This document shows positions 510-22,742 of a stretch of 64,000 nucleotides of DNA, in pieces. Source of the DNA: an uncultured delta proteobacterium (GTDB lineage: Bacteria > Myxococcota_A > Polyangia > Polyangiales > Polyangiaceae); assembly GCA_963782055.1 (NCBI GenBank), contig CAWAIF010000003.1, positions 2,720,001-2,784,000 on the forward strand, written 5' to 3'. The notes beneath the pieces are model-generated. The model searched no databases and was not told the origin of the DNA. It was given only the letters and a program-made list of their open reading frames with translations. The position numbers and the translations under genes are program-made. How positions within the stretch are numbered: the first letter of the stretch is position 1; each line of letters starts with the position of its first letter.

Positions 510-524
510 GCGCCAAGAGCGCGC

Positions 525-4576: not shown

Positions 4577-4834
4577 ATGGTCGTCTTGGGTATCGGATAC
4601 TCCGATACCAATGTGCCTCCCCCGTCACGGCGCCGTCGGCACGAGGAGAACGCCGGGCGCGACACCTCCCGCGGGGAGATCTTCGAGGCCTTCGTTCTCG
4701 ACGGGGTGTCGGTGCGGCTGGAGAACGGCAAGGTCGTGGCCGAGCTCGGCTTCCAGATGGCGGAGGACCCGGACCACTACGTCACGGTGTACCTGGAAGA
4801 CTGGAAGGACGGCGGCAGCTCCATCGACTCCTGA
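4577..4834 (+). CDS. Small acidic hypothetical protein
   Basis: Short ORF ending YVTVYLEDWKDGGSSIDS; start uncertain. Confidence 0.45.
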   Translation: MVVLGIGYSDTNVPPPSRRRRHEENAGRDTSRGEIFEAFVLDGVSVRLENGKVVAELGFQMAEDPDHYVTVYLEDWKDGGSSIDS

Positions 4835-5101
4835 GGTCCGGGGAAGGCCGGCGGGCGCGCGGTCGGAGCGCGACCCTTCCCACGGGCACGCGCAGCATCA
4901 GGCCGCCGCGGGCGGCGCCTCGGGACTCCCTATTTTCCGCGCGAGGCGACGTAGAACTCCGCCGCCGTCAGGCCGCTCGCCTTCCATTTCCCGACCCGCT
5001 TTGCCCACGTGTCTCGCGTCGACATCCCGTCGAGGAGTACGCGATGCGCCGCTGTACTTCATGAACGTGGTTGGTCGAACGGATACGATCTTCAGGCGCC
5101 A

Positions 5102-5515
5102 CTACTCCTGGTCTGGGAACACCTCGATCGCGAGACGTACGCCAAGGCGAGCCATTTCCGTCATGCAAGCATTCGAAATGATGAACCCCGCATTCTCGCG
5201 CCCAACCAACCCCAGGTAAAGCTCGCAACTGCCACCGGTCTCTACAAAGTTGTGCAACCATTGCTCGTTCTCCCCCAGGCGACGTGTCCATTCGCCAATC
5301 AGCTGCTCCATGTCACATGGCTTGGACAGTTCGCCACACCAGTACGTTTCTCCGTATCGACCTGTCAAGGGGCGATCCTTTGGGGTTCGCCGCTCAGTTC
5401 CAGCTCTCCAAGAAAAACGAGGCTGAAGGCCGAGCCTACTTGTGACTTCTTCTGGGGCTATGCTCGGGTGCGTCAGGCGACAGGCGACGCTGTTGGGAGG
5501 GCATCTCGATATCAT
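5102..5515 (-). CDS. DUF4279-like putative immunity protein
   Basis: LTHPSIAPEEVTSRLGLQP...W...G...TYW and C-terminal LGVRLAIEVFP; ATGA overlap with the upstream toxin fragment; lower GC. Confidence 0.75.
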   Translation of the reverse strand: MISRCPPNSVACRLTHPSIAPEEVTSRLGLQPRFSWRAGTERRTPKDRPLTGRYGETYWCGELSKPCDMEQLIGEWTRRLGENEQWLHNFVETGGSCELYLGLVGRENAGFIISNACMTEMARLGVRLAIEVFPDQE

Positions 5516-5756
5516 GGAATGTAATCTTTAACTGGGCCATTATCGATAGCGTTACCTTCGCCATCTCCAGTGATCACGTGTCCATCCGGACTTATCCCGG
5601 CCCAATCCTTTGGTTCTGCCAAGACTCCCTCCTTGATGTTTCTTTGATGTTGTTTAGTCCATGGTGTCTGATTGATAGGCTTCGTCCCGGTCGGGCAGCC
5701 CTTCGGCTTGGCTCCCTTGGATCGTGATTGGGGCGTCTCAGCGAGCAAGCCAAGCG
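5512..5756 (-). pseudogene. Orphan Rhs/polymorphic toxin C-terminal domain, truncated at the core boundary
   Basis: Begins (x)LGL immediately after repeat A, a remnant of DPLGL; ~78-aa tip; coupled to the DUF4279-like gene. Confidence 0.7.
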
Positions 5757-5804
5757 CATAGGAAATCCTAGCGCGGTCGGGCGCGAAAGTTTACGAAATC
5801 CATC
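5757..5804 (-). repeat. Repeat A copy 1 (ori-side half only)
   Basis: CATAGGAAATCCTAGCGCGGTCGGGCGCGAAAGTTTACGAAATCCATC, identical to 8901-8948. Confidence 0.95.
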
Positions 5805-7007
5805 TTGGACGAAGCCGCTGCGCGGCAGCGTGGCTCCGCATCAAGCACGCTGGCGAGCCGGGAGCCTCGCGAGCGTGTGCGCGCTGGCGAGTCCGCCTCG
5901 TAGCCCTCGCGTGCCGTGACGCGGGCGATCCTGCGGCGCGCGCCGCCCGCTCGTGGGCGCGCGCGGAGCCAAAGGAGGCCGCGATGGGTGCGAAGCGAAG
6001 ACTGCGGGACACGATGAGCGAGGACCTCGCGCTGCGAGGGATGAGCGCCAACACGATCGCCACGTACGTGGGTGCGTGAGGCGGTTCGCGCAGTACCACG
6101 GGCGGTCGCCGTGCGCGCTGGGGGCGGCGGAGATCCGTGCGTTCCTCTTGCACCTGGTGGCGGAGCGCAGGCTGGCGGCGCTGACGGTCAACGTGCACGC
6201 GGCCGCGCTGAGGTTTCTCTACGAGGTGACGCTGGAGCGGCCGGAGGCGACGCTGGGGGATGGCGCGCATGCGGGTGCCGATGCACGTGCCGGTGGTGCT
6301 GACGAGCGCGGAGGTGGCGCGGCTGCTCGCGGCGCTCACGAGCCACAAGCACCGGGCCCTGGTGATGCTCGCCTACGGGGCGGGGCTGCGCGTGAGCGAG
6401 GTGTGCAAGCTCCGGGTGGACGACATCGATCCGAAGCGGATGCTCCTGCACGTGCGGCACTCCGCCAGCCACGCCACCACGCGCCTCGAGACCGCTCGCC
6501 GCAGACTGGGTCCGCACGCGGCGCCCGCTGCGCGACCGGTGCGCCGTGTCGACGCCGCCGACCTGCTGCTGCGAATCGCGGGCATCGACCTGCACCGCTG
6601 CCCCGCTTGCCACACGCCTGCCCTCGTGCGTACCGCGCTGCCGGAGCCCCGAGCTCGCGACCCGCCGGGGGCCGCATGATCTCCCCGCGTCGTGCTCCAC
6701 TGCGCTCGCTCCACGAGTGCGGCCCAGGCCCCTGTCCATCCACGCCACGAAAACCCGGCCTCCGAGCACGCACGGCTGCCCGCTGCGCGCTCCGGGACGC
6801 CCGCGTCGAGCGCCGTCCCGCCGCCCGCTCCGCACCTCGCGCACCCGCGCCCGTGACCCACACGCCGCCAACTTCCCCATAGGGCTCCGAGGCCACCGCC
6901 TCGCCGCTGCCGCGCACCGGCTTCGTCCAACCGTCGATTTCGCGACCGCGCACCCGCGCCACGCGACCGGCGTCACGACCCGGCGCGCTCACGCAATCGA
7001 CTCTTAC
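5805..7007 (+). mobile_element. Internally deleted copy of the integrase + IS91-family transposase element
   Basis: Near-identical to 8949-11469 but lacking 9606-10922 (junction GCAC at 6457-6460); 26-bp inverted repeats at 5805-5830 and 6905-6930. Confidence 0.9.
5984..6679 (+). pseudogene. Fused remnant of tyrosine recombinase N-terminus and Y2 transposase C-terminus
   Basis: ...KRMLLHVRH joined to SASHATTRLE...; additional 1-bp indels near 6070 and 6255. Confidence 0.9.
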
Positions 7008-7016
7008 TTATGGTAA

Positions 7017-7432
7017 ATGCCGCGCCGCATCATCGCTGGCGTGCGGTTCCTCGACGCGCGAGCCACGGTGGTCGGGCACTTCCCTGCTCGTCAGGAGGTG
7101 ATCGAGCTGGCCGCGGACGTCACCGTCTTCCTCCGGCGGCAGCTCAACCAATGGAAGAGCGCGCGAGGGTACGGGCGTCGCGTCCAGGGTCAGCAGGGTG
7201 AGCGGTGGGCGGCCGCGCTCGGCCTCTCCCGCGACGCCGACCTGTGCGACCGACTGGAGCGCTGGTGGGGGACGGGCGAGGTCGCGCTCCAGGAGGTGAC
7301 GCGGGACGGCGGCGCGGTGCTCAGCCCGGCCCGCTTCGACGAAGGCTTCGACGGTCGCTTCACCTTCCTTTGGACGACCAGCCAAGCCCAGCTCCAGCGC
7401 TACGCGCGTCAGCTCCAGCTCGATCCCGAGGC
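7017..7432 (+). pseudogene. Hypothetical gene or fragment cut by repeat B
   Basis: Protein-like ORF running into repeat B at ...LDPEAE. Confidence 0.45.
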
Positions 7433-7553
7433 TGAGCCTCCCCGAAGACGAGGAGATGGTAGCATCGAGGGTGCGTACGGGGCCCGCGGGCGGCGCAACC
7501 GGACATGATGGATGCTAGCGAACCCAGATCGAGGGCCAATCTGGCTTATCCAC
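7433..7553 (+). repeat. Repeat B copy 1 (~121 bp)
   Basis: TGAGCCT...GGCTTATCCAC; 3 mismatches to 8071-8191. Confidence 0.95.
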
Positions 7554-7579
7554 TTCGCCAATGGTGAGGAGGTTTTCGC

Positions 7580-7972
7580 ATGGAGATCAAGGCGCTGCTC
7601 GGGGCGGAAGATCCGGGGGAGCTCGCCGAGGCGGCGATGGACCTCGCCGACGCGCTGGCGGCGCTCGCCGACGCGAAGGGCCGGCCGGGGCTCGCGCCGC
7701 CGGTGGACGTCGCGTACCGCGTGGTGCTTGCGGACGGCGCGATGAACAACGATGGCGCCCGAGCGCTCATCGATTCCGGCATCCCCGCGGAGGAGCTCCT
7801 CTCGGCGCTGCGCGAGATCGGCGCGCCGAAGATGGCCGAGATTCTCGCTGGCGCCCTGGCCGAGCCCGACGACGCCGCGGCGCTCGACCGGTGGAGCGCC
7901 TATCCGGACTACCTCGAGGGGCTGCTCGTCGACTGGGTGACCCGCCATCGCGCGGCGTTCGAGTCCGCGTAG
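7580..7972 (+). CDS. DMP19/DUF4375-like small acidic protein
   Basis: GAGGAGG RBS; DGAMNNDG, ALREIGA and LLVDWVTRH resemble the family pattern. Confidence 0.65.
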   Translation: MEIKALLGAEDPGELAEAAMDLADALAALADAKGRPGLAPPVDVAYRVVLADGAMNNDGARALIDSGIPAEELLSALREIGAPKMAEILAGALAEPDDAAALDRWSAYPDYLEGLLVDWVTRHRAAFESA

Positions 7973-8070
7973 CGGCCCTCGCCAGCTGGAACGCGAAGGG
8001 CCAGACCGCGTCCGGTCCGGCGGGTGCGCCCCGTGCTGGGCCAGCTATGGCTCCCTGCCGCCCTGCCCCT

Positions 8071-8191
8071 TGAGCCTTCCCGAAGACGAGGAGATGGTAG
8101 CATCGAGGGTGCGCCCGGGGCCCGCGGGCGGCGCAACCGGACATGATGGATGCTAGCGAACCCAGATCGAGGGCCAATCTGGCTTATCCAC
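8071..8191 (+). repeat. Repeat B copy 2
   Basis: Direct repeat of 7433-7553. Confidence 0.95.
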
Positions 8192-8432
8192 ATCGCGTCC
8201 TTGATCTTGGTCAGCCCCCTTCTGGGCGCACCCCATCGGGGGGCAGCGGCGCGGGTCGTCAGCGCCGCCACGGCTGTCGAAGGTGCCGCGGGGCTCGGCT
8301 CCGCGGTCCTCGACCCCGGGCACCCGGCGCGGCGGAGGCCATGACGCCCGGTCCGCGGCAGTCGACGCCCGCTGGAGGCTGGACAGCCGGCGGACACCCG
8401 TGGTTTTTTCCACGCACTTCGCGAGGTGCTCC

Positions 8433-8900
8433 GTGCACAAGCTGCTTGCAATCTCCCTGGTCGCATCGCTGGCGGCGTGCTCGGGCAGCTCGACCCCGTC
8501 CGGCTCCACGGGCTCGGCCTCGACGAGCGGCTCCGGCACCACCGGCGCGAGCTCCAGCGGCTCCACCGGCACCAGCAGCACCGGCGGGAGCGGTGGCTCC
8601 ACCGGCGGCGTGCCGCCAGGGGGCAAGCGGATCTTCCTCACCTCGTCGACCTACGAGGGCGGCGCGCTGGGCGGGGTCAGCGGCGCGGACCAGAAGTGCA
8701 CCCTCTCGGCCCAGGCCGTGGGCCTGAGCGGCACCTGGATCGCGCTCGTCTCCGGACTGGACCGCATCAGCGACGTCGGCCCCTGGTACCTGCTCGACGG
8801 CACCAAAGTCTTCAACAACAAGGCCGGGCTCTCGACCACGCCGTTCGCGGTGATCAGCATCGACGAGCGCGGCGGCGCGCACGCGGGCGACGAGCAGGCG
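8433..8900 (+). pseudogene. Lipoprotein with DUF1554-like domain, 3'-truncated by repeat A
   Basis: LAAC lipobox, Ser/Gly/Thr linker, RIFLTSSTYEGGALGGVSGADQKC; breaks at GDEQA into the repeat. Confidence 0.75.
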
Positions 8901-8948
8901 CATAGGAAATCCTAGCGCGGTCGGGCGCGAAAGTTTACGAAATCCATC
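8901..8948 (-). repeat. Repeat A copy 2, ori-side half
   Basis: Matches the corresponding 48 bp of the intact copies at 18679 and 21143. Confidence 0.95.
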
Positions 8949-9128
8949 TTGGACGAAGCCGCTGCGCGGCAGCGTGGCTCCGCATCAAGCTCGCTCGCGA
9001 CCCGGGAGCCCCGCGAGCCGTGTGCGCGCTGACGAGCCCGCCTCGTAGCCCTCGCGTGCCGTGATGCGGGCGATCCTGCGGCGCGCGCCGCCCGCTCGTG
9101 GGCGCGCGCGGAGCCGAAGGAGGCCGCG

Positions 9129-9974
9129 ATGGGTGCGAAGCGAAGACTGCGGGACACGATGAGCGAGGACCTCGCGCTGCGAGGGATGAGCGCCAACACG
9201 ATCGCCACGTACGTGGGGTGCGTGCGGCGGTTCGCGCAGTACCACGGGCGGTCGCCGTGCGCGCTGGGGGCGGCGGAGATCCGGACGTTCCTTTTGCACC
9301 TGGTGGCGGAGCGCAGGCTGGCGGCGCTGACGGTCAACGTGCACGCGGCCGCGCTGAGGTTTCTCTACGAGGTGACGCTGGAGCGGCCGGAGGCGACGCT
9401 GGGGATGGCGCGCATGCGGGTGCCGATGCACGTGCCGGTGGTGCTGACGAGCGCGGAGGTGGCGCGGCTGCTCGCGTCGCTCACGAGCCACAAGCACCGG
9501 GCCCTGGTGATGCTCGCCTACGGGGCGGGGCTGCGCGTGAGCGAGGTGTGCAAGCTCCGGGTGGACGACATCGATCCGAAGCGGATGCTCCTGCACGTGC
9601 GGCACACCAAGCGCGGGCGTGAGCGCTACGTGATGCTCAGCGCGAGGCTGCTGGCGACGCTGCGCGCGTACTGGAAGGCGTCACGACCCGCAGGACCGCA
9701 ACTGTTTCCGGGGCGCGTGCCCGGGACGCTCCTCACGCGCGCGGCCGTCCACCGGGCGATCCTCAAGGCGGCGCGGCGCGCGGGCATCACCCGGCGCGTG
9801 TCGCCGCACACGCTGCGCCACAGCTTCGCCACGCACCTGCTCGACGCAGGGACCGACCTTCGCACGTTGCAGGTCTTGCTCGGGCACGCGTCGCTCAGGA
9901 GCACGATGGCCTACCTGCACGTGAGCACCGCCCGCGTGCAGTCGATTCAGAGCCCCCTCGACGCGCTGCCCTGA
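9129..9974 (+). CDS. Tyrosine recombinase (XerD/IntI-like, SAM-like N-terminal domain)
   Basis: YGAGLRVSE, K, HTLRHSFATH, LLGH, TMAY catalytic residues; GGAGG RBS. Confidence 0.95.
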   Translation: MGAKRRLRDTMSEDLALRGMSANTIATYVGCVRRFAQYHGRSPCALGAAEIRTFLLHLVAERRLAALTVNVHAAALRFLYEVTLERPEATLGMARMRVPMHVPVVLTSAEVARLLASLTSHKHRALVMLAYGAGLRVSEVCKLRVDDIDPKRMLLHVRHTKRGRERYVMLSARLLATLRAYWKASRPAGPQLFPGRVPGTLLTRAAVHRAILKAARRAGITRRVSPHTLRHSFATHLLDAGTDLRTLQVLLGHASLRSTMAYLHVSTARVQSIQSPLDALP

Positions 9975-9980
9975 GCCCCG

Positions 9981-11141
9981 ATGCACCCGTCGTGTGCGCC
10001 CGCGCGCACGCGCGCGGCGCCCATCGAGCTCGCGGACGTGGTGCGCGCCCACGGCGAGGCCTTCGCCGGCGGCCGCGTGCTGCGTCCCGAGGAGCGGTCG
10101 GCGCTGCGGGCGATCGAGCGATGCCGGACCGCCGCGCTGGGCGGACATCTGGACGTGTGCACCGCGTGCGGGCTCGAGCGACCGTCGTACAACTCGTGCC
10201 GCAACCGGCACTGTCCCAAGTGCCAGTCGCTCGCGCAGGCGCGGTGGGTCGCCACGCGGCTCGAGCGCATTCTGCCCGTGCACTACTTCCACGTCGTCTT
10301 CACGCTCCCCGCCGAGCTGCGCGCCGTCGCGCGGCGCTCGCGCGCGCGGGTCTTCGACATGCTCTTCGCGAGCGCGGCCGACACGCTGGCCACCCTCGCG
10401 CGGGATCCGAAGTGGCTCGGCGCCGAGCTCGGCGTCACGATGGTCCTGCACACCTGGACGCGCGCGCTGCTCTTCCACCCCCACGTGCACGCCATCGTCA
10501 CCGGCGGCGGACTCACCGGCGACGCCGCGCGCTGGGTGCGCGCGCGCCGTCGCTTCCTCTTCCCCGTGCGCGTGATGGGCGCGCTCTTTCGCGGCAAGAT
10601 GCTCGCCGCTCTCGAGCGCGCCCACGCGCGCGGCCTCGTCGACCTGGGCGGCGTCGACCTGCTGGCGCTCCGACGCAAGGCCTGGGTCGTCTACGCCAAG
10701 CGACCCTTTGGCGGCCCCGCTCAGGTCATCCGCTACCTCGGTCGCTACACGCACCGCGTCGGCATCTCCAACCACCGCTTCGTCTCGATGGGCGAGCGCG
10801 GCGTCACCTTCCGCACCAGAGACGGCAAGTCGGTCACCGTCCCGGCCGAGGAGCTGCTCGCGCGCTTCGTCCAGCACGTGCTGCCGCGCGGCTTCGTCAA
10901 GATCCGCCACTACGGCCTGCACTCCGCCAGCCACGCCACCACGCGCCTCGAGACCGCACGCCGCAGACTGGGTCCGCACGCGGCGCCCGCTGCGCGACCG
11001 GTGCGCCGTGCCGACGCCGCCGACCTGCTGCTGCGAATCGCGGGCATCGACCTGCGCCGCTGCCCCGCTTGCCACACGCCTGCCCTCGTGCGCACCGCGC
11101 TGCCGGAGCCCCGAGCTCGCGACCCGCCGGGGGCCGCATGA
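9981..11141 (+). CDS. IS91-family Y2 HUH transposase
   Basis: Zn finger (CxxC, SCRNRHCPKC), HPHVH HUH motif, YLGRY, IRHYG. Confidence 0.95.
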   Translation: MHPSCAPARTRAAPIELADVVRAHGEAFAGGRVLRPEERSALRAIERCRTAALGGHLDVCTACGLERPSYNSCRNRHCPKCQSLAQARWVATRLERILPVHYFHVVFTLPAELRAVARRSRARVFDMLFASAADTLATLARDPKWLGAELGVTMVLHTWTRALLFHPHVHAIVTGGGLTGDAARWVRARRRFLFPVRVMGALFRGKMLAALERAHARGLVDLGGVDLLALRRKAWVVYAKRPFGGPAQVIRYLGRYTHRVGISNHRFVSMGERGVTFRTRDGKSVTVPAEELLARFVQHVLPRGFVKIRHYGLHSASHATTRLETARRRLGPHAAPAARPVRRADAADLLLRIAGIDLRRCPACHTPALVRTALPEPRARDPPGAA

Positions 11142-11469
11142 TCTCCCCGCGTCGTGTTCCACTGCGCTCGCTCCACGAGTGCGGCGCAGGCCCCTGTCCA
11201 TCCGCGCCACGAAAACCCGCCCTCCGAGCACGCACGGCTGCCCGCTGCGCGCTCCGGGACGCCCGCGTCGAGCGCCGTCCCGCCGCCCGCTCCGCACCTC
11301 GCGCACCCGCACACGTGACCCACACGCCGCCAACTTCCCCATAGGGCTCCGAGGCCACCGCCTCGCCGCTGCCGCGCACCGGCTTCGTCCAACCGTCGAT
11401 TTCGCGACCGCGCACCCGCGCCACGCGACCGCCGCCGCGACCCGGCGCGCTCACGCAATCGACTCTTAC

Positions 11470-11518
11470 TTATGCGAAGTGGGGCCGTCCGGTGTCACTG
11501 GAAGGACGGACCAGGGTG
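11470..11518 (-). repeat. Repeat A copy 2, inner half
   Basis: TTATGCGAAGTGGGGCCGTCCGGTGTCACTGGAAGGACGGACCAGGGTG. Confidence 0.95.
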
Positions 11519-12672
11519 GCCTGATCGGTGGAGATGTGGAGCAGGTTGCCGCCGAGGAGGAGCGGGTGGGCGCTCACGGGAGGCACGACGCCCCCCTGGA
11601 CCATCGGCGGGTACCAGGAGACCGGCTCCGTCTTGCTCAACCCCCTGGTCGACACGTCCGGCTCCGGCCAGCCGCGGCACTGCAAGCCGCTGTGGCAGAC
11701 CCCGACCGGTGTCACCTTCGTGGAGTCCTCGCCCCACTTGCCGACCACGTCGTAGGTGGTGGTCGGATCGTCGGCGTCGGCGAAGGTGGAGGCGGCGTCG
11801 CCCAGGTCGCTGAGCTGCCAGGTGGCGCCGTTGAGCCAGTCGGCGCCGTTGTCCTGCGTGCCGATGAGCAGCCCACCGGGCGCGCCGGGCACGGTGGCGA
11901 TCGACTGGAGCTGGGTGATCTGCAGCCCGTACTGCGGCTGGTCGTCCCAGACGTCGGCGTTCAGATCGCCGACGAAGAACCCTCCGTCGTTGGCGTCGAA
12001 GCCGAGGAGGTTGCTCCCGTCGACGAACACGTAAAGATCGTGGTGGTCGGGGTGAAGCGCAGCGGCGGTGTTGGAGCCCATCTCGTTCCAGTCCACGCCC
12101 GAGTTGTCCGAGTAACCCAGCATCATCCCGGTGAACCAGAGCTTGGTCGCGTCGGTCGGATGCACGATCAGCTTGTGGCCATACGTGGAGTAGGTGCTGG
12201 GGGCGAGATCCAGGTCTGGCGGCGATTGGACGAACGCGCGCTGTTGCGTCCAGCTCTGCCCGCTGTCGGTGGACTTGTAGATCGCCGGCTGGCACCACCA
12301 GTTGCCCGTGGCCGTGAACCCGCTGGGGCACTGGGCGAGCGCCGCGTAGAGCGTGGAGGTCGTGCTCGGCGCGATGGCGATCTCCGCCCAGTCGGCGGCG
12401 TACTGGCCGCCCGTGAGCAGGGACGCGTCGATACCCGTGTTGATCGGCGTCCAGTTCGCGCCGCCGTCGGTGGACTTGTAGAACCCGGCGCTCTGCAGGC
12501 CCGCGTAGAGGGTCTGCGGATTGCCCGGATCCATCCGGAGCTCGGTCCCCTTGACGCCGGGCTGCCAGAGGACGCGCGACCAGCTCTGCCCGCTGTCGGT
12601 CGATTTGTAGATGCCGTAGCCGCCCGGGGGCGTGGTCTCCACGGTCCCATCGGATGCGCCCGTGACCTGCAT
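11519..12672 (-). pseudogene. Fragment of a BNR/Asp-box (VPS10/xyloglucanase-like) beta-propeller protein
   Basis: Repeated YKSTDxGxxW; LHPDHH, ANDGG, IGTQDNG; no signal peptide; cut by repeat A. Confidence 0.8.
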
Positions 12673-12747
12673 CGGGGGGAGGGGGGCCGGACGGTATGCG
12701 CATCCGGGGGGCGGATGGCGAGGGGGCGAGGAGGCCCTCGAAGGTGG

Positions 12748-12813
12748 CCGCCAATATTGGCGGTGCGGGTCGCCAATATTGGCGGGGGACAGGGAAGGGG
12801 ACAGAGGGGACAG
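12748..12813. repeat. Two tandem perfect palindromes followed by GGGGACAG repeats
   Basis: CCGCCAATATTGGCGG (12748-12763), CGCCAATATTGGCG (12771-12784), then 3x GGGGACAG. Confidence 0.85.
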
Positions 12814-12882
12814 GCCGCCAGGCGACGGCGGCCGCGGCATACCGCGTGACTCTCCCTGGCGCGGTGCGTGCAGCTCGGGGGC

Positions 12883-14271: not shown

Positions 14272-14421
14272 CGCACTGCCCGGGCAGGCACCGGTGCGCG
14301 CGGGGACCGAAAATCAGCCGGCAAATGGCACCATCGAACCGCGGCGACCACGATGGGGACGTTCGGGCGCAGCAACATCACGCCGCCAGGACCGCCCCGA
14401 AGGGGCGCGGCTCGTGGAAAA

Positions 14422-14443
14422 CCGCGCTTGAATCCCGTACGCT
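14422..14443 (+). other. Putative oriIS end of the 12883-14271 element
   Basis: GCGCTTGAATCCCGTA|CGCT downstream of tnp; resembles the ISCR/IS91 oriIS terminus and truncates a neighbouring ORF. Confidence 0.65.
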
Positions 14444-14505
14444 CTCGCTGCTCGCAGGCACCGGCGTGCCTCGGTCTCGTCCTCGATCTTCCGTGCGCTC
14501 GCCAC
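14440..14505 (-). pseudogene. Short N-terminal gene fragment, possibly IS66 TnpA-like
   Basis: GGAGGT RBS + MASARKIEDETEARRCLRAARA, cut at the ori-like end. Confidence 0.4.
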
Positions 14506-14995
14506 TGGTCACCTCCGCGTCGTGCCCGAGCCTGCACGGCGCGCACGCGAAGATCATCCCGGCGTCGCTGATGGGTCACGCGCAGACCCACCGGCTCGGT
14601 GGCGAGCACGACCGACGCCGCGCTGCGATGTCGCGCACGCGGGCCCTCAGCTCCAGCTCGAAGCGCTCGCCCGCGCCGCTGGGATGCCTCGCGATCATGT
14701 GGCGCACGGCTGCCGCCAACGGGATCCGGATGGGCTTCGCCGAGCAAGGGTCGCCGGCTACGTCAGGACGGGGCAGCGCGAGACCTTGCCCTCAGCAGGG
14801 TCAGTGCTCGATGTCGCTGTGCTTCGCCCTGCCGGAGAAGAGCTGCACCCTTCGACAATCGCCGCGCAGAACATCACATCGTTGTAGATCAACAGGAGCC
14901 TTCCGCGTGACGACCCAGTCGGACCGCAACACCGCGCAGAACGTGAGTCAATTGCGGAGCGATTCCCAGCACCCGACGCCATGGGAGACCGCGGT

Positions 14996-16090
14996 TCAGT
15001 CACCGCCAAACGGCGGGTGTGACGCGACCCAGATGTCATACTTTCCGCCGCTCCCCGAGCGCTGACTGGTGAAGTAGAGGCTGCAGGAGTCCGGCGAGAT
15101 CCATCCTGGGATGTCCACACCCTGGTTGGAGGCAAGCTCCGTGACGACGGCGGCGTTCGCGAACAGGGAGCTCGTCGTGGCACGGTTCGCTACCCAGACG
15201 TCGCCTCCTTGATAGTAGTACAGCGTCAGCCCGTCGCCCGTCACCACGGGATGCGGGACATCCGCGACGCCCGACACGAACACTTGCACCGGCTTGGAGC
15301 ATGTCCCCTTGCCAGTGCAGTCCGCCTCGAAGAGAGGCAAGTCAGCGTTGTTGCCCTGCATGGTCAAGTACAACTTACTACCGTCCTCGGTCACATATGG
15401 CCACCGATGGAAGACGTTCGGCTGGCTGACGCCTGTCACCACCGACGGGGTGCCGAATGGCATCGCGGTGCTCGTGCGCTGGCTCACGAAGATGTCGAAG
15501 AATGACGCAGCGTCGAAGTCGTTCGACTCGAAGTACATCGTGAGCCCATCCGCCGTAACAGCCGGGGCGTCGTCTATGAGGGAGCCGTTGACGTTGCCGA
15601 CAGGCGCGACGTTGCCGAAGGCATCGCTCCTTGTCGCGCGGGTGGCCTGGTAGATGTCCACGCTCTGGTTGGCGTTCGCGCCGCGCGCGAAGTAGATCGT
15701 CAGCTCGTCGGGGCTGAGGGAGCCGACCAGCTCGTAGTCCGCCGTGTTGATGTTCCCGCCCAGCGGCGTCGGTGGCATGAAGGGCTTGCCCAGATCGCAC
15801 GGCGGCTGGCCCGAGTCGGTCGGCGCGGCGTGGTCACTTCCGTCCCCACTGGCGTCGAGGTCTGCATCGACCCCCGCGTCGAGGCCCGAGCAGTCGCATG
15901 CCGAGTATGCCGTCCCCGCCGCGTTGCAGACCTGGTACCCGGTGCAGCTCCCGGCGCCGACGCAACTGACCGACTGGTTCGGGATGCATGCCGGGGACGA
16001 CGACACGGGGGGATCGCCTCCGCCGCACTGGAACGCGAGGGCCGCGCCGACCGCCGCGGCGGTGAATAGGACAAGGTACTGTCTCGACAT
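14996..16090 (-). CDS. Lipoprotein with PD40/TolB-like beta-propeller repeats
   Basis: Signal peptide with Cys; repeated SPDELTIYF/TADGLTMYF/TGDGLTLYY; GGAGG RBS. Confidence 0.85.
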   Translation of the reverse strand: MSRQYLVLFTAAAVGAALAFQCGGGDPPVSSSPACIPNQSVSCVGAGSCTGYQVCNAAGTAYSACDCSGLDAGVDADLDASGDGSDHAAPTDSGQPPCDLGKPFMPPTPLGGNINTADYELVGSLSPDELTIYFARGANANQSVDIYQATRATRSDAFGNVAPVGNVNGSLIDDAPAVTADGLTMYFESNDFDAASFFDIFVSQRTSTAMPFGTPSVVTGVSQPNVFHRWPYVTEDGSKLYLTMQGNNADLPLFEADCTGKGTCSKPVQVFVSGVADVPHPVVTGDGLTLYYYQGGDVWVANRATTSSLFANAAVVTELASNQGVDIPGWISPDSCSLYFTSQRSGSGGKYDIWVASHPPFGGD

Positions 16091-16461
16091 GATGCCCTCC
16101 ATCGACCGGCCGCGATGATGGCTCGTCGCCACAACAACACAGAGCACGATCCCACTCGTGGCGCAAGGCGCGGGCCTGCGCTGCCGGCTGCCGGGGACCT
16201 GGTCGTTCCCGGTCCGGCAGCGTTCTCATGGCTGGAGGCGCGCCACCAAGGCCTCCCCACTGACCGCGACCGCGCGCGTGACGGTGCCGGACGGCAAGGT
16301 CATCGTGTCGGCGCGTGTCCGCGCAGCATCCGACCACCACGGAGTCCGGCCACGTGGGGAACGCAAGCCTCAGAAGATGTTCGCGCTGCTCTGCGACGAG
16401 CCGGAGCCGAAGCTCGCCAAGTTCTTCCCACCGGAATCGAACTGCGCGTCGCCTCACACCG

Positions 16462-16980
16462 TTAACGTTGAGTCTCACACGCGCGCGTGCAGGCATTGTG
16501 CACGGCATCGGCTCCGTCAAGGCAGCGTTGCAGAGCGCCTCCGCCATTCGCACACCACGCCCGTCGGCAGGTCCGACGAACCGTGCGAATGCACGTGTTG
16601 CGATCAGCGTTGTCCGCGGCAACGTCGGCTCTACAGTCCTCGAGAATCTGGGGTAGGTCTCCAAGGCACACATTCTCGCAGAACGCACGCGCCGCGAAAC
16701 CACGGCACACTACATGACATTTTTGCGTACGCTCGGTAGCGACGCTCGTACAACTCCCCACATCTTCGGGCGAACCGCATACGGCGTCACCGACCCGGCA
16801 GTATGCGTCGCAGGCGGTACACTCCATGCTCCTGACGAGCACCGGGCGTGCGCAGGCGTCGAGGCAACCAGCGCGACGCTTCCGCGCCACCAGCGCGTCC
16901 CGCTCGGCCATCGGCCTGCAGCCCCATAGACCGAGGGCGACGACGATAAGCAGCGCCGGAAAGGAGGTGACGCGACGCAT
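16462..16980 (-). CDS. Cys-rich lipoprotein
   Basis: LGLWGC lipobox; many CxxxC motifs. Confidence 0.6.
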   Translation of the reverse strand: MRRVTSFPALLIVVALGLWGCRPMAERDALVARKRRAGCLDACARPVLVRSMECTACDAYCRVGDAVCGSPEDVGSCTSVATERTQKCHVVCRGFAARAFCENVCLGDLPQILEDCRADVAADNADRNTCIRTVRRTCRRAWCANGGGALQRCLDGADAVHNACTRACETQR

Positions 16981-17007
16981 CCCAGTTAGCCGCGACATCA
17001 TCATGCG

Positions 17008-18459
17008 TCATGGATCGGTGTTGTCCGTGGCGCGCCGGCACCCGATCGTGAGCCCTTGATCACACGCCTTCGCATACAGCCGTTGAGCAGCTACCGCATC
17101 CGGTCGCGTTCCGACGCCGACCGCCGTGAGCCGCGCCAAAGTCAAGCACGCAGTCGACTCGCCCTCATTGCAGGCCAGATCGTCAAATGATACCGCGATG
17201 CTGGCGTCTCGTGAAGTTCCGATGCCAGCTTCGTAGACGCGGCCCACGTTGGCGCAAGCTTGCCCGAGTCCCTCCTGGCACGCCTTGATGTAGAGCTCTA
17301 CGGCGCGTGCAGCGAACCCGCATCCTGGTGTCCTCTCGTAGACTTGCGCCAAGTCGTTGCAGCCTCCCGCTCCGTCGCGGCCGCCATTCAAGCAGGCTCG
17401 TTTGTAGAGGCGAAGCGCCGTTGCCTCATCCCGCTCGACGCCGAACCCAACTTGGTAGAGCTGCGCAAGGTCCTCGCATCCTACCGGATCGTCATGAGCG
17501 CACGCGTGTCGATATAGCTCCGCGGCGCGGACTGGATTGAAGCTCACCGTAATGCCATGCTGGTAGGCAACGCCCAGGTTGACGCAGGCGCTCTCACCGC
17601 CCCCATGACCACACGCTCGCCGGTATAACTTGACTGCGCGCGCCGTGTCGACGGGTACACCGCGGCCGCTGTCATACAGCCACCCTAGATTGCCACATCC
17701 AACCATGTCACCCCCCGCGCATCCTCGCCAATAGCTCGTCGCCGCGCGAGCGTAATCCTGGATACCACCGCGCCCGCGTTCGAAGAGGGCGCCCAGGTTG
17801 CTGCAGGCGCGAGCCAGACCCCTGCCGCAAAGCGAATCGTAGAGGAGTGCCGCTTGCGGCACATCGCGACTGTCATCGTCGTAGAGCCACGCGAGTTGGA
17901 GGCAGGCCTCGACGTCGCCGGCGTTGCATGTAGCCTGCTGGATGGTGATGGCGTGATCAACGTCTCGCGGGACACCAAGCCCCCCCGCATAATCAATTCC
18001 CAAACGCCTACATCCAACGATCTGTCCCCCGTAGCAAGCACGTTGATTGAGGCGCGCGGCGCGTTTGAGATCGGTGCTCACACCAATGCCGTTCGCGCAG
18101 AGCCACCCCAGGTCCAGACAGCCTTCGGCGTCGCCAAGCTGGCACCCCCGCTCGTCGAGTTCGGCCGCCTGCTTATCGTCTCGACTGACGACAATACCTT
18201 GTAGATAAAGCGATCCCGCCGCCGTACAACTCCCTGCGACGCCGCGGGAGCATTCCAACTGGAGAATGGTGAGGGAAGGGGCGCGCGGGCCGCGCGCCGC
18301 GGTGCTAGCAGTTCCCCTGCAGCATCCAGACGCATCGGGGTTCTCGCCGGACCGACAGAGCGAGCTACATGTCACCGCCTGTCCCTGAGCGGCTGAAGCA
18401 CCGAGCAACGGAAGGAGAAATGCCAGGGGCCAAAGGGGAGGGGAACAGCGCATTCTCAC
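17008..18459 (-). CDS. Secreted Sel1-like repeat protein (Cys-rich, Hcp-like)
   Basis: Signal peptide; about 11 repeats of CxxLGxxYxxGxGVxxDxxxAxxLYxRAC. Confidence 0.9.
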   Translation of the reverse strand: MRMRCSPPLWPLAFLLPLLGASAAQGQAVTCSSLCRSGENPDASGCCRGTASTAARGPRAPSLTILQLECSRGVAGSCTAAGSLYLQGIVVSRDDKQAAELDERGCQLGDAEGCLDLGWLCANGIGVSTDLKRAARLNQRACYGGQIVGCRRLGIDYAGGLGVPRDVDHAITIQQATCNAGDVEACLQLAWLYDDDSRDVPQAALLYDSLCGRGLARACSNLGALFERGRGGIQDYARAATSYWRGCAGGDMVGCGNLGWLYDSGRGVPVDTARAVKLYRRACGHGGGESACVNLGVAYQHGITVSFNPVRAAELYRHACAHDDPVGCEDLAQLYQVGFGVERDEATALRLYKRACLNGGRDGAGGCNDLAQVYERTPGCGFAARAVELYIKACQEGLGQACANVGRVYEAGIGTSRDASIAVSFDDLACNEGESTACLTLARLTAVGVGTRPDAVAAQRLYAKACDQGLTIGCRRATDNTDP

Positions 18460-18678
18460 ATGATAGCTCAGGCGCGCTCACGGGCAAAGGGCGTCCGGTG
18501 GCCTCCGTAGAACTCGTTAGGCTCCCAGTCGCGGTTGACACCCGCTCCAGTCGGAGCCCACGGAAGGCTGCAGGCTCCGCCCGCACGCAGATGTCGGCAG
18601 ATGTTCACTGCTGTCGCACCGGGCGGCCTCGCGAAGGGGGTGCGTGGTGGCGGGGCGGGCCACTCGAACGCTCGAGCG

Positions 18679-18775
18679 CATAGGAAATCCTAGCGCGGTC
18701 GGGCGCGAAAGTTTACGGAATCCATCTTATGCGAAGTGGGGCCGTCCGGTGTCACTAGAAGGACGGACCAGGGTG
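18679..18775 (-). repeat. Repeat A copy 3 (intact, 97 bp)
   Basis: Uninterrupted unit; dif-like site at 18710-18737. Confidence 0.97.
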
Positions 18776-18816
18776 GGTCCCTGGACACAGACACACGACG
18801 CGATCTCCCGAGCGTT

Positions 18817-18833
18817 TGTCAATGCTATTGACA
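18817..18833. promoter_or_regulatory. Operator-like palindrome containing TTGACA
   Basis: TGTCAAT-gct-ATTGACA; no properly spaced -10 found. Confidence 0.3.
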
Positions 18834-18906
18834 TGAGAAACCGCGCAGAATCCGCGGCCAAACGTCCCTGGAAACCGACACCGCGTCATGGACAACGAAG
18901 CGTGCG

Positions 18907-19470
18907 TCAAGTTCGAGTCTTTTTGGGTCGCGGATCGGCGTCGCTCTGGCTTGGCACGCTGAACACTTGGATATCTCCTCGACCAGAACGATCAATCACC
19001 AGTCGTCCAGCACCGTCGAGCAGTCCTTCGCCGTCGAAGACGAGCCCTTGCCCCGCTGCGGCTACGGCAAAGATCAGCGCGTAGTGTTCATCAGAAAAGA
19101 ACGGCTCTCCGACGCAGCCCAGAATCGTGTTGGCCCCATCCAAAATGTGCATCGCCTCGTCACGCTGCGCCTTCCGTTTCCTGACGTCCTGAAAAAAGGT
19201 GGTTGTGCCGAGAATCACTCGATTGAACTTTCCGCGGGCACCACTCGTGCCACCCCCGACATAGCGGGAAAGGTTGATGGTCATCTTCGCGTCTTGGCTG
19301 AACAGCACCGCCTTCTTCCACTCACCATCCTTCGAGGGCCCGCGGCGGCTCAAGCCGAACCGTTGCGCACTGGCTTCGACCAAGCGGCGCACCTCCTCCG
19401 CTTCTGCCTCGCAGAATATCGTGCAGACATCTGTGAATCGTTCGTACTCCTCAGCCGCGCGCCTTCCCAT
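18907..19470 (-). CDS. Putative immunity protein of the upstream Rhs toxin
   Basis: Starts 5 bp after the toxin stop; lower GC; family not recognised. Confidence 0.65.
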   Translation of the reverse strand: MGRRAAEEYERFTDVCTIFCEAEAEEVRRLVEASAQRFGLSRRGPSKDGEWKKAVLFSQDAKMTINLSRYVGGGTSGARGKFNRVILGTTTFFQDVRKRKAQRDEAMHILDGANTILGCVGEPFFSDEHYALIFAVAAAGQGLVFDGEGLLDGAGRLVIDRSGRGDIQVFSVPSQSDADPRPKKTRT

Positions 19471-19475
19471 TCCGC

Positions 19476-21142
19476 TTACCTCTTCTTCTTCCGCCGGCGT
19501 CCGCCCGTCTTCTGGCGCCCGCCGTCATACCCAGTCTTGGCATGCGTTTTGCGATCCACAAGCTGAAGCGTTCGCCCGTCCTGGTGATGGTGCCACGTCA
19601 GGCCGGTGATCCTGGCTTCTTCGTTCTCGATGTCGTCCAGTTGCTGCTTCGTAAATCGCCGACGCTTCCGAGGGTCCTTCTCTAGGGCCTTCTTCAGATC
19701 GCGCGTGGCAAATTTCATCTGCGAGTCATCGGAAACAGATGGATTGCACATACGCTTCGGAAGCTTCTTGTTGTGAAGAGAATCGAATACAGGGTTTCCA
19801 GTCTTGTCGAACCGAACACCCGTCTTCTTGTGTCGCTTGCCGGCCATTTTCATCCGTGCAAGACCGAACGGATCGATGTCATGCGTCGGAGATCCGTCGA
19901 ACCGGAAGGCGTTCGAGTCACCATCTAGACCGAGCGGATCGGGACTCAGCCACCGCATTGTGTCTGGGTCCCAGTATCTATGCCGGACGTATTCAAGTCC
20001 TTCTTCGCAGTCGATGTAGTGCCCCTGAAGGCCGAAACTGAGCCCGTCAGACGCCTTCGTGCCACCCCAGACCGAAAGGTCGTCGCGCTCCAACACTTGG
20101 CCGGACGAGTGGACACCTCCCGTGACCGTCGCCACTGGGTCCTTCAAGTGCTGCACCCAGCGGCCATCGACGCGCTCGGCAACGGGCTCGATTCCGTCGT
20201 CCTCGAAGAGGTATGCTCGTTCGTCGACGATCTCGTCGCCGTTTTCCACCGCCCTTCGCCGCACTTCGTGTGCTAGCGCATCGCCGTCCCACACGAAGCG
20301 CGTGGTTGTCCCGAACACGCGGTCGCCCTCGGTTTCGGCCACTCGCTTTTCTATCCGTCGGGCGAACGGGTCGTACGAAAACTCGACATGCTTCCCATCC
20401 GGTGTGTCCACTTTCTGCAGCAGCCCCGCACCGTTCCACCCATACTGCCACACGCGCTCACCGCTCTCGGTGATTTCGCGCTTGCAAGAGAGCCGACCGT
20501 CACCGTCCCACTCGTATTGCGTGTTCCCCTTCTGCAGCAGTCGGTTGCCTCGGCCATAGCGGCGTTGTGGATCCTTGTCCCCGGCTTCGTAGATGTTGCC
20601 GGCCGGGTCGTACCGGAATACCTCTTCTCGTGCCTTGGCCGGGACCGAAGCCAGCAATTGCCCGACCGGGTCGTATCGGTACTCGGTCTTTCCCCGCCGT
20701 AGATCGTTCTTCTCAATCAGCTCTCCGTCCAGGTCGTACTGGTACGTGGTGTAGGAAGTAACGCCTTCGGGCATGCCCCCAACCCACTCGGGCTCGTCGG
20801 GTCCGGCGGATCGATGCTTTGCGGGAGAACGGACAACGCGTTGGGCAAGACGCCCCATGCGGTCGAAGCCGCTCTCCAGCATGCCTCCGCCCGGCAGGCG
20901 ACGTTGGACCTCGCGGGACAAGATATCGTTGACGTGGTCGATCTGATGGTTCCCGTCGAGCAAGGTACGGACTCGCGCGCCCATGGCATCGCGCTGGACA
21001 CGCTCGGTGTGACCAAGGCTGGTCTCACGGTAGCTGCGCTCGCCTGCAGGTTCATACGTGACGGCGACCCATTGGTCCGTGCCCGCGACGTTCTGGCTCT
21101 CACGGACGATGCGGCCCAACGCGTCGCGTTCGAAGCGGAGCG
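19476..21142 (-). pseudogene. Rhs repeat protein C-terminal half with WHH (HNH/EndoVII-fold) nuclease toxin, 5'-truncated by repeat A
   Basis: YD repeats, RYWDP...WLSPDPLG...IDPFGL core end, LTWHHHQDG...LQLV...TH. Confidence 0.9.
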
Positions 21143-21239
21143 CATAGGAAATGCTAGCGCGGTCGGGCGCGAAAGTTTACGAAATCCATCTCATGCGAAG
21201 TGGGGCCGTCCGGTGTCACTGGAAGGACGGACCAGGGTG
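21143..21239 (-). repeat. Repeat A copy 4 (intact), 38 bp downstream of the transposase stop codon
   Basis: 97-bp unit; dif-like site at 21174-21201. Confidence 0.97.
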
Positions 21240-21277
21240 AGCACGCGCTAGGCGGACGGGCGCGCTGCCGCGCGTGG

Positions 21278-22742
21278 TCAGGCGGCGGGGGGGGCGTCTG
21301 CGGCGAGGTCGAGGAGGTCGGTCGGATCGCGGGCGCGGGCAGGTGCGGGGGCTTCGGCGGGGAGGTCGAGAGCGCGGAGGATGCGGACCACGGCGGCGTC
21401 GTCGGTGATGACGGCGAGGGGACGGAGGCGGCCCCCGCAGGTCGGGCACTGGAGCACGTCGATCTCGAAGGTGCGGCGGAGCAGGCGCGGCCAGTCGATG
21501 CGGGATGTCGCTGCGTAGAGAAGGCCGCGGCGAAGGCGCTCCCAGTGGCCCACGGCGACGACGTTGGGTGCGAGACGGCGCACCTGGAGGTCTGCGGCGG
21601 CCGCGGGTGCGGCGGTCTCGGGCGCGGGTGGCGGGACTGGGAGGGGGAGGGCGAGCTGGCCCGCGGGCGGCGCGCTCGTGGTGCTGGCCGCCCCCGCGGG
21701 ATCGCGGCGCACGGGGTCGGGCCTCTCTGCCGCATGTGTGGTGTCGCGATGCGCCCGCCTCTCGATGGGCTGCCCGGGTTTCGCGGGGACGAGGGGGCGC
21801 GAAGGACGCGGAGGCCCGCAGGACGGGGCGGACGGCTCACGCGGCCTGGGGACCACGAGCTTTCGCCACGACAATCGGGGGGCGAGGACACCGTGGTAGC
21901 GGACAAGTGGGTAGCGCGGCGGCGGGACGAGCGCGGCGACGCGGGCGAGGAGCTCCACCGGAGTGAAGATCATGTGCTTCGCCTTGCCCGCGCGCGGCTG
22001 CTTGACGCGGTAGGCGACGCGGCCGTCGCGCAGGAGGCGTAGGCGCGAGAGGGCGAGCGCGGGGCGCAGGGCGTAGCGGCAGAGGCGCTCGCGGGCGAGA
22101 TCGTCCCGGACGCGGACGCCGGCGTGGAGGTTGAAGCCGGTGTCCTCCACCGCGCGGTGAGCCATGGCGGGGGCGGCTGCGTCGTCGTCGTCGTCGCCGC
22201 CGGGGTCGATCGCGAGCTTCAGCACCTTCGGGCGCTGCATCGCGAGAGCCACGCAGGCGTCGAGGGCGCTCGGCTCGACGTCGAGGTCCACCGGATCCTC
22301 GGAGAGGTGACCGTGGCGGCGGAGCCACGCGATGGCGCGACGGCTGACGGCGGTGACGAGCTGCTGCAGCTCGGCGCGGGTGGGCGCCGGCAACGGCACG
22401 AAGCCGAGGGCGCCGCTGGCCGCGTCCTCGAAGCCGACGGCGCGGGCGCGCCGGCGGTGGCTGGCGAAGATGGCGTCGGCGAAGATGCGCGCGAGCGCGC
22501 GCAGCACCACAGGGTCGAAGGCGGCGAGGCGGCGGAGCTCGTACGGCAGCGAGAGGACGTACTGGCGGAGGGGGACGTCCGGGAGCACGCGGTCGACCAG
22601 GTGGGCGGCGGTGTTCGCCATGCGACGGCCGGCGCAGCTCGGGCAGACGCTGCGGCCCTGCAGGAGAAGGCGACGAGCAGATCGTGGCCGCAGGTGTCGC
22701 ACCGGGCGCGGAGGAAGCCGTGGCGGAAGACGCCGCACCTCC
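21278..22742 (-). pseudogene. ISCR/IS91-like HUH transposase pseudogene
   Basis: RCGVFRHGF...CDTC...AFSC, CPSCAGRRM, GFNLHA, LCRYALRP, VRYHGVLAP present; N-terminus missing, frameshift ~22660, QR...HxH segment deleted ~22409. Confidence 0.9.

Follow-up and report, generated by a model that had tools for sequence, protein, structure and literature searches.

One-sided arrays of a 100-bp IS91/ISCR-type origin module and captured DNA in a Polyangiaceae genome

Background

A stretch of 64,000 nucleotides from the genome of an uncultured delta proteobacterium of the Polyangiaceae (GenBank assembly GCA_963782055.1, contig CAWAIF010000003.1, positions 2,720,001 to 2,784,000 of the forward strand; hereafter the window) carries several co-oriented copies of a short repeat on one side of an HUH transposase gene, with unrelated genes lying between the copies. 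What is this repeat, and how did copies of it come to alternate with unrelated DNA? In an initial annotation it was held to be the origin (oriIS) of an IS91/ISCR-type element, duplicated whenever a fragment is acquired and building an array comparable to integrons or to clustered regularly interspaced short palindromic repeats (CRISPR).

The question has a wider bearing: ISCR and IS91 elements are blamed for assembling clusters of resistance and virulence genes, yet the accepted model moves DNA on the side opposite to the variable genes. As set out in excerpts of PMC13181058, rolling-circle transposition in the IS91 family begins at oriIS and ends, with sloppy termination, at terIS, and the last 82 bp of IS91 together with a tetranucleotide suffice as oriIS; the conserved oriIS of the family contains palindromes (PMC13181058 and PMC5737581, both in excerpt). 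Diverse genes downstream of the oriIS of ISCR1 are described in part of PMC13393415. Here we report that the repeat is a 100-bp origin module of an ISCR-like element, that it forms arrays on the origin side of the transposase gene, and that pieces of the host genome have been copied into these arrays. We propose, with a probability of roughly 0.6, that the module doubles as a miniature element and that the arrays form by transposase-mediated joining at its nick site.

Results and discussion

The repeat unit is the origin module of an ISCR-like element

A repeat search recovered five members of the family in the window (at 21138, 18674, 11417, 8896 and 5752), which alignment resolves as two whole copies, a copy broken into two parts and a half copy, sharing one strand and having sharp ends; every copy first reported (21143-21239, 18679-18775, 8901-8948 with 11470-11518, and 5757-5804) is among them. 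The length originally given, 97 bp, is to be corrected to 100 bp: the + strand GCG preceding position 1 is retained in 20 of the 21 units printed in the analysis, and CGC follows the ATG of the unit in 20 of 21. Read in the direction of the transposase gene, all the whole genomic units printed conform to CACCC...CCTATGCGC. This sequence comprises a hairpin near the inner boundary, the conserved box CGTAAACT, another short palindrome and a T-rich ...TTTCCTAT end that finishes in GCGC, after which unrelated DNA starts with a pyrimidine (20 of 21 units). The base preceding the CACCC end is likewise a pyrimidine (21 of 21). Directly after GCGC, CTCG, TACG and TCCG recur, the sample being small for defining a tetranucleotide, and no target duplication is seen at the units. 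Two palindromes fold in the unit, and a terminator-like hairpin lies 7 nt from its non-origin boundary. Since shuffled sequence attains an equally good folding energy (z -0.08 and -0.25), the hairpins are supported by conservation rather than by energy. Given its initiating end and its terminator-like hairpin, the unit behaves as a self-contained miniature element.

ISx, as we term the element next to unit 1 of the window, is present twice more in the genome, at 4.4105 and 5.2653 Mb; the 3' ends of these two copies abut a unit just as in the window. The first of these codes for a protein of 573 residues with Y2_Tnp and Zn_Tnp_IS91 domains (Y2_Tnp profile positions 1-178, E 2.1e-28) and an HFH motif visible in the translation, and the second matches the same two domains with E-values of 1.8e-27 and 7.8e-16. 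The intact copies therefore have the zinc-binding N-terminal domain and the Y2 HUH catalytic domain that the IS91/ISCR family requires. In NCBIfam the model closest to the 573-residue protein is ISCR clade Ia (E 7.8e-82; 275.4 bits, the cut-off being 925), and the protein reaches 101.4 bits with the IS91 equivalog (cut-off 125); given that both scores fall under the cut-offs, ISx is an ISCR-like, distant member of the IS91 superfamily belonging to neither curated clade. On the side opposite oriIS the two intact copies start sharing sequence at GGGTGTCCGGGGTGTCCGG, a putative terminator. The unit itself is distinct, lies 3' of the gene, contains subterminal palindromes and ends in a conserved motif, ...TTTCCTAT.., which is common to 9 related loci. 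This shared motif and the linkage to the 3' end of ISx bear out the initial assignment of the repeat as the origin end of an IS91/ISCR-type element.

The transposase copy of the window itself is defective. Homology of this copy to the intact ones spans 21240-22741, and in a three-way alignment it lacks ~230 bp at the 5' end and, through a 99-nt in-frame deletion, ...NLNVHFHTIVMDGVF..., the HUH motif. It matches Y2_Tnp over profile positions 81-178 only (E 6.8e-20) and NCBIfam ISCR_clade_Ia at 148.8 bits, under the cut-off. Judged by its sequence the window transposase is inactive, and since its ISx copy is devoid of the HUH motif the window array is now inert on its own.

Several other properties of the unit were considered. 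A classical miniature inverted-repeat transposable element (MITE) was rejected, for the ends of the unit are not inverted repeats and the 3 nt before and after it agree in just 6 of 20 units; the earlier argument against a MITE, that the flanks of a copy belong to different genes, is not valid on its own. Rfam covariance models gave 0 matches at E up to 1 in window positions 4000-24000. No sigma-70-like promoter was found in or near the units, and an outward promoter such as that of ISCR1 is accordingly not supported. Each unit ends in AGGA-N7-ATG-CGC, that is, a ribosome-binding site and start codon aimed into the cargo (window 21140-21160, 18676-18696 and 8898-8918, minus strand); open reading frames (ORFs) from this terminal ATG exist, for example 20717-21145, which is out of frame with the Rhs fragment lying there. 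The G+C content of the window is ~72%, that of the unit and of much of the inter-unit DNA being lower.

Arrays lie on the origin side of the transposase gene in this and other genomes

Searching the genome with the unit (blastn) gave 60 matches, 20 of them full length; 53 fall into four clusters (A to D, Table 1; A is the window) spanning ~2.7% of the genome and 7 lie elsewhere, a distribution that excludes chance as the source of the repeat. The units are 96-99% identical over 100 bp, and those printed include one unit-unit tandem. An ISx copy, with a unit abutting its 3' end, closes each of clusters A, B and C, and the flanks past ISx differ among the three sites. Solo insertions with contiguous flanks, dispersed over the genome, were looked for as evidence against the initial proposal; with 53 of 60 matches clustered, the unit is not dispersed in this manner. 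A profile search raised the count to 64 matches, some being degenerate and situated on replicon C2 or at 2.27-2.30 Mb, and found no unit remnant in window 510-5750 (nhmmer). The GC skew of the 7-Mb contig is too flat for assigning units to replichores. At G000:C2:550325-554204 the second replicon, C2 (0.56 Mb), contains a diverged ISx-like sequence (73-80% identity) together with three weak unit-like matches, and may hold an older or sister array.

Relatives of the intact ISx transposase were scanned in one genome per species. The scan gave 43 loci (36-80% identity in the best segment; 40-64% for matches over most of the protein), mostly from Myxococcota assemblies, with some from Acidobacteriota, Gammaproteobacteria and others. 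When 26 loci were compared with themselves, a post-gene block of 66-159 bp proved to be directly repeated 1.5-7.6 kb downstream in eight (L047, L050, L053, L059, L062, L064, L071 and L076). These repeats have sharp ends and finish in a ...TTGAA.TTCCTA.-like sequence, a terminal motif that we take to be the oriIS signature of the family. A stricter count was confined to the 20 loci in which the match extends as far as the gene's 3' end, 8 of them with 2.8 kb or more of downstream DNA: a direct downstream repeat of the 400-bp origin region is present in 5 of the 8, an upstream one in no locus, and the pre-gene (terIS-side) region is repeated in 0 of 19.

Whole-genome searches of three genomes extend this picture. 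G042 has 26 matches, and behind its gene eight direct copies and an inverted one make up a 31-kb array, in which copy identity drops from 100% to 76-88% with distance; G041 has 4 matches, three of them within one array; and the same-genus G043 has 25, clustered and with many halves. The cargo of the 31-kb array is mixed (an AcrB/HlyD efflux pair, a PKD-repeat protein, SnoaL, an antidote protein, and partial Na+/H+ exchanger and MscS genes), which indicates that capture is not specific for toxin genes. The unit itself was not found in 38 of 40 related genomes, the two weak matches being in the same genus. As the initial annotation had anticipated, arrays with variable cargo occur behind homologous transposase genes, at three places in this genome and in other genomes, other phyla included; they recur in Myxococcota, Acidobacteriota and Gammaproteobacteria.

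Host fragments are copied into the arrays and end at units

Alignment of the cargo to donor loci revealed that some pieces were copied from the same genome, with breakpoints at unit ends. For many stretches of arrays B and C a single matching locus, 88-100% identical, exists elsewhere in the genome, and in these larger arrays the copied pieces measure 150-600 bp and break exactly at the ends of units. An ORF with coding-type composition crosses the breakpoint in 6 of 8 sources checked, which identifies the array copies as the derived fragments; neither blastn nor the profile search found a unit at the source loci. The first cassette of array B is a 340-bp piece 100% identical to C2:3479-3818, an entire small gene together with its ribosome-binding site. 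On either side it is bordered by the origin end of a unit, one of the two being inverted, and neither outer flank matches the source; duplicative inversion was rejected as an origin of the inverted pair, the expected contiguity with the source replicon being absent. Elsewhere a 292-bp piece from 6.83 Mb (98.3%) fills the gap between a partial unit and the next unit, and a 4-nt overlap, TGGC, links two pieces that derive from 5.37 and 2.31 Mb. One cassette of array B (G000:C3:4433477-4435278) contains three pieces from an 8-kb source at 6.954-6.962 Mb in the order c, a, b, which looks like a circle opened at a new point. Pieces of known source start just after GCGC with CTCG (twice), TACG, TCGA, CAAC or CCGG.

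The junctions of units with their surroundings are, save for those with ISx, all unique (31 inner and 32 outer). Where a unit has a paralogous flank elsewhere, the continuation of the paralogue never matches the other flank of the unit, all four cases printed failing to show contiguous flanks. In comparisons of array and source, 6 of 11 end at a unit or half-unit and 0 of 11 sources continue into the far flank. A longer segment of the window, cargo S, occurs twice more in array C at 99-100% identity with none of its unit junctions the same: on one side there is a 23-bp difference between A and C1, with C2 having no unit there at all, and on the other the copies differ by a 150-bp stretch between two GCTCGA repeats. 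One breakpoint within an Rhs-like gene serves two arrays, the adjoining unit lying to its left in C and to its right in B.

These observations bear on an alternative in which a 100-bp miniature element inserts into existing islands, homologous recombination between its many near-identical copies shuffles the flanks and deletes or duplicates segments, giving rise to apparent cassettes, and the transposase does nothing beyond insertion. The initiating end and terminator-like hairpin of the unit and the existence of a unit-unit tandem are in keeping with it, as is the Rhs-like breakpoint seen from both sides in two arrays; the 150-bp difference in cargo S, situated between GCTCGA repeats, resembles an ordinary deletion, and Bardaji et al., in an excerpt of PMC3189936, hold that most genomic IS801 fragments come from reorganisation. 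We nevertheless regard it as unlikely, since none of the units has flanks that adjoin one another in a paralogue or source, units are nearly absent outside the arrays (7 of 60), the arrays are confined to the origin side of the transposase gene both here and in 5 of 5 repeat-bearing related loci, and the 340-bp piece is enclosed by two unit origin ends with outer flanks unlike its source.

A further alternative holds that one-ended rolling-circle replication produces circles of a unit with adjacent DNA, which then join the arrays by RecA-dependent recombination with a resident unit. It would give the same final structure as transposase-mediated insertion, and the near-identity of the units would let them act as portable homology, like the role proposed for the 3'-conserved segment in the case of ISCR1; the permuted c, a, b pieces could likewise stem from a circle opened elsewhere. 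However, this pathway needs a unit beside each source locus, where none is seen, 100 bp is short for efficient homologous recombination, and both the transposase gene capping each array and the constrained base after GCGC are left unexplained. It appears distinctly improbable to us.

A proposed mechanism of array growth

We infer that the transposase makes the joints, and propose the following order of events. The intact ISx copies at 4.41 and 5.27 Mb would supply the transposase, which, anchored on a resident unit, would cut a single strand at GCGC/Y (Y, pyrimidine; the slash marks the cut). The cut end would then be joined to other single-stranded DNA cut at similar short sites, and the pieces placed there would include toxin/immunity modules, fragments of host replicons and, in other genomes, whole genes. 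Early termination at the inner hairpin would make fresh units landing at the same place, so that a unit may be duplicated with each acquisition, as initially suggested. With repeated joining at GCGC/Y, head-to-tail cassettes would pile up only on the origin side of the transposase gene. Cutting and joining of this kind, combined with early termination, would yield tandem units, unit-plus-fragment cassettes, one-sided arrays and unique junctions, all of which are observed. Growth near the transposase is hinted at by the greater degeneracy of units far from ISx, and by the 100%-identical first cassette of array B; the correlations concerned are weak.

Several points weigh against this proposal. 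In the canonical IS91 model the strand is peeled from oriIS back through the transposase gene, which moves DNA on the terIS side, and the joining pathway proposed here is without experimental precedent. The absence of units from the source loci is awkward for a route in which a unit inserts and then reads through, and the shared Rhs-like breakpoint is compatible with a plain insertion of 100 bp and later recombination between units. The polarity expected of growth from the transposase end is weak: the Spearman correlation of unit identity with position from ISx is -0.42 (p 0.04) in B and -0.43 (p 0.07) in C, and that of fragment identity with position is -0.27 (p 0.39). The 400-bp origin region has no repeat in 3 of the 8 related loci that extend 2.8 kb or more downstream. 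There is no evidence of present activity. Finally, the genome is seemingly metagenome-assembled, and the joints are known from the assembly alone; a soil-metagenome run among the public reads, containing 29% of the sampled words, gave short, low-depth contigs ending at repeats, and neither backs nor contradicts them.

If the mechanism holds, it would constitute a bacterial route for stockpiling toxin tips, immunity genes and gene fragments. With their position on the origin side only, their unique junctions and their freshly copied host fragments, the arrays also form a natural large-scale data set on the function of origin ends. A broader generalization, that ISCR-like HUH transposases across phyla splice single-stranded pieces of any DNA and fresh 100-bp modules together at the origin nick site as a fixed docking point, and so build polar head-to-tail arrays of cassettes tens of kilobases in length behind their genes, is one we entertain tentatively and hold to be rather doubtful. 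Were it true, it would represent a third prokaryotic way, besides integrons and CRISPR adaptation, of building ordered records of acquired DNA, as well as a bacterial counterpart of gene-fragment capture by Helitrons, and would explain the old puzzle of the variable genes beyond the oriIS of ISCR elements.

ISint, an IS91-family element inserted in the unit centre

Rather than representing stages of capture, the split and half copies of the window are due to insertions of a second IS91-family element, ISint. One IS91-family subgroup carries an upstream tyrosine recombinase, and ISint combines a gene of this kind, for an Xer/integron-integrase-like recombinase (9129-9974; Pfam Phage_integrase, E 6.5e-40) with a Y2 transposase gene (9981-11141; Y2_Tnp, E 3.5e-49; Zn_Tnp_IS91, E 5.3e-30), the product of which scores 389.7 bits with NCBIfam IS91 (NF033538), over the cut-off of 125. 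The genome contains ~14 ISint copies and fragments, all with at least one terminal half unit and 7 with half units at both ends. The ends of the insertion are ambiguous by 3 nt (CTT), and they resemble the unit centre for ~10 nt on each side, which is why half-unit profile matches overlap at positions 40-62. The joints are readable as [CTTG...element...]/CTTA, a configuration resembling the left-end and target tetranucleotides of IS91 in the excerpt of PMC13181058. In our reading ISint parasitizes the unit secondarily and has no part in array formation: following array growth it would insert at a CTTA in the unit centre resembling its own end junction, and the split and half copies would result. 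The arrays also present the 100-bp origin module as a unit of genome construction, with a second transposon specialized in parasitizing it.

The recombinase of ISint could alternatively be the agent of array formation in an integron-like manner, recombining unit centres so that circles of unit and cargo are excised and integrated. The half units borne by all ISint copies and fragments, the similarity of its ends to the unit centre, and the best NCBIfam match of the recombinase, to the integron-integrase subfamily (TIGR02249; 198.9 bits, under the cut-off of 265), speak for this. Tyrosine recombinases are, however, expected to need 6-8 bp of identical overlap, whereas the ISint joints have only CTT in common with the unit and the reading with CTTA fits an IS91-type insertion. 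Moreover, 0 tyrosine recombinases were detected in 31 scanned ORFs of the 31-kb array of G042, and recombination at unit centres is unable to create either the junctions of unit ends with cargo or a 100-bp tandem. We therefore judge this explanation very unlikely.

Further observations concern individual ISint copies. ISint occurs only within the centre of the origin unit. Beyond the half unit at 5757-5804 and the deleted ISint next to it lies unrelated DNA with no second unit half. Four copies have a common 200-bp internal deletion (positions 1633-1833), and an isolated ISint-bearing unit at 5.977 Mb (G000:C3:5977016-5980806) lies exactly between two diverged tandem copies of ~0.9 kb (75-93% identity).

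Relationship to known systems

The arrays belong with one-ended transposition of the ISCR/IS91 kind and with miniature fragments of the IS801 type, and are somewhat Helitron-like; they are not an integron, a MITE or a CRISPR array. ISx resembles ISCR elements in its single Y2 HUH transposase, its downstream oriIS with a TTCCTAT-like end and the diverse genes right beyond it (PMC13393415, in excerpt). It differs in that whole elements or the integron 3'-conserved segment are repeated in the case of ISCR1, whereas here only the 100-bp module is, up to ~20 times per array; in that the cargo consists of toxin/immunity genes and host gene fragments rather than resistance genes; and in the distance of its transposase from the ISCR clade (275 bits against a cut-off of 925). 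For IS801, the accessible portion of PMC3189936 describes right-end miniature fragments of 229, 360 and 679 nt, which are often mobilised and start at a tetranucleotide like that of the left end. Like the unit, these are short, sharply bounded on the left, and keep their right (origin) end whole; their mobilisation occurs in trans, they arise from premature termination, and they are associated with virulence or toxin genes. In contrast, that portion reports them as trapped single insertions and contains no report of co-oriented arrays behind a transposase gene, and the ISx unit is shorter (100 nt) than the fragments given there, with a hairpin beside its inner boundary.

With Helitrons, the rolling-circle transposons of eukaryotes (background in PMC4778049), the arrays have in common HUH chemistry, a terminator hairpin a few nt from one terminus, and capture of gene fragments from multiple loci through microhomology joints, for which the TGGC joint offers an analog; ISx, however, has no helicase domain, and here a copy of the origin module is left between the pieces. 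As in integrons, a mobility gene lies at one end, co-oriented cassettes are split by a repeated site, and there is a weak polarity of age. In contrast to integrons, the arrays end in an HUH transposase gene and have neither an adjacent integron integrase nor attI or attC sites; a transposon origin serves as the repeated site, and gene fragments make up many of the cassettes. No attC-like imperfect inverted-repeat structure was found in the unit. The initial likening to integrons and CRISPR is hence an analogy, with no feature of either present. Recombinase-associated arrays of orphan immunity genes may also be likened to the present ones, given an enrichment of immunity-like genes among the cargo of this genome. 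A search of open-access text, limited in extent, found no published description of arrays of origin units. Two aspects seem to be new, namely regular one-sided origin-module arrays with captured DNA, which reach ~90 kb and recur across phyla, and a dedicated element combining an IS91 transposase with a recombinase and targeting the origin module.

The inserted block of the window and its cargo

In the same-genus genomes G001 and G004 the small Cys-rich ORF (window 72-509) and a Ser/Thr kinase gene (from ~22851) adjoin, which identifies window ~510-22741 as an insertion of ~22 kb; its right edge is the truncated ISx. The features of the block and the clusters of units in the genome are collected in Table 1.

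Table 1. Features of the inserted block (window coordinates) and genomic clusters of the unit (Mb)
Feature	Coordinates	Strand	Basis or remarks
Defective ISx transposase gene, ISCR-like, IS91 family	21278..22786	-	Pfam Y2_Tnp, NCBIfam, alignment with B and C copies
Unit 1, oriIS module of ISx	21140..21239	-	38 bp past ISx stop codon; minus-strand reading CACCC...CCTATGCGC; end motif common to relatives
Cassette 1	18907..21139	-	orphan Rhs fragment and downstream 187-aa ORF
Unit 2, whole	18676..18775	-	repeat search, alignment, blastn
Cargo S	14656..18675	-	Sel1-repeat protein 17008-18459 and PD40 repeat protein 14996-16147 (Pfam)
ISB transposase, third IS91/ISCR-like element	12868..14271	+	Pfam Y2_Tnp 2.8e-21, Zn_Tnp_IS91 4.7e-17; NCBIfam
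Cargo fragment, BNR/sortilin-like repeats	11519..12700	-	weak Pfam Sortilin-Vps10 2.5e-7, under cut-off; 37-nt repeats
Unit 3, hairpin half (positions 49-97)	11470..11518	-	repeat search, alignment, blastn
ISint, IS91-family element with tyrosine recombinase	8949..11469	+	2521 bp, inserted in centre of unit 3
Unit 3, origin half (positions 1-48 plus GCG)	8898..8948	-	repeat search, alignment, blastn
Cargo with DMP19-like ORF (7580-7972, +)	7010..8897		Pfam DMP19 1.1e-7
Internally deleted ISint	5805..7009	+	positions 658-1970 missing; origin end abuts CTTATGG, not other unit half
Fourth unit, origin half	5754..5804	-	repeat search, alignment, blastn
Distal part of block	510..5753		DUF4279 ORF 5102-5515 (-), Pfam 3.4e-7; absent at locus in same-genus genomes
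Cluster A (window)	2.726-2.741 Mb	all +	5 matches
Cluster B	4.411-4.484 Mb	19 on -	24 matches
Cluster C	5.177-5.265 Mb	all +	18 matches
Cluster D	6.168-6.200 Mb	mixed orientation	6 matches

Of the mid-gene boundaries initially claimed, the one in an Rhs gene at 21142 stands, the frame of the Rhs fragment (19476-21139) being open right up to the unit; those in a lipoprotein gene at 8900 and a toxin tip at 5756 were not confirmed. The Rhs fragment has a colicin-DNase/WHH nuclease tip (Pfam Colicin-DNase, E 3.6e-19; RHS_repeat, 5.9e-10; WHH, 4.8e-9). The 187-aa ORF downstream of it (18907-19470), which has no family match in Pfam or NCBIfam, is by its position a candidate immunity gene. Array C includes Rhs and TcdB-midC-like ORFs and three tandem modules of ~3 kb; these modules (G000:C3:5246660-5253525), 90-94% alike, lie downstream of the Rhs/TcdB-midC-like gene, and unit-flanked fragments of them are found in array B.

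The ISB element, which extends over roughly 12700-14455, faces the array from the opposite side, and fragments related to it occur at 2.26-2.29 Mb, 4.431 Mb and 6.775 Mb and at the start of replicon C2. A 118-bp stretch of the distal part of the block (window 1829-1947) matches, in inverted orientation and with 84% identity, cargo S at its left end (14618-14736). The gene flanking the block on the right (22851-25618) codes for a Ser/Thr protein kinase with TPR repeats, the kinase core of which recurs dozens of times in the genome, as fits a genome of the Myxococcota type.

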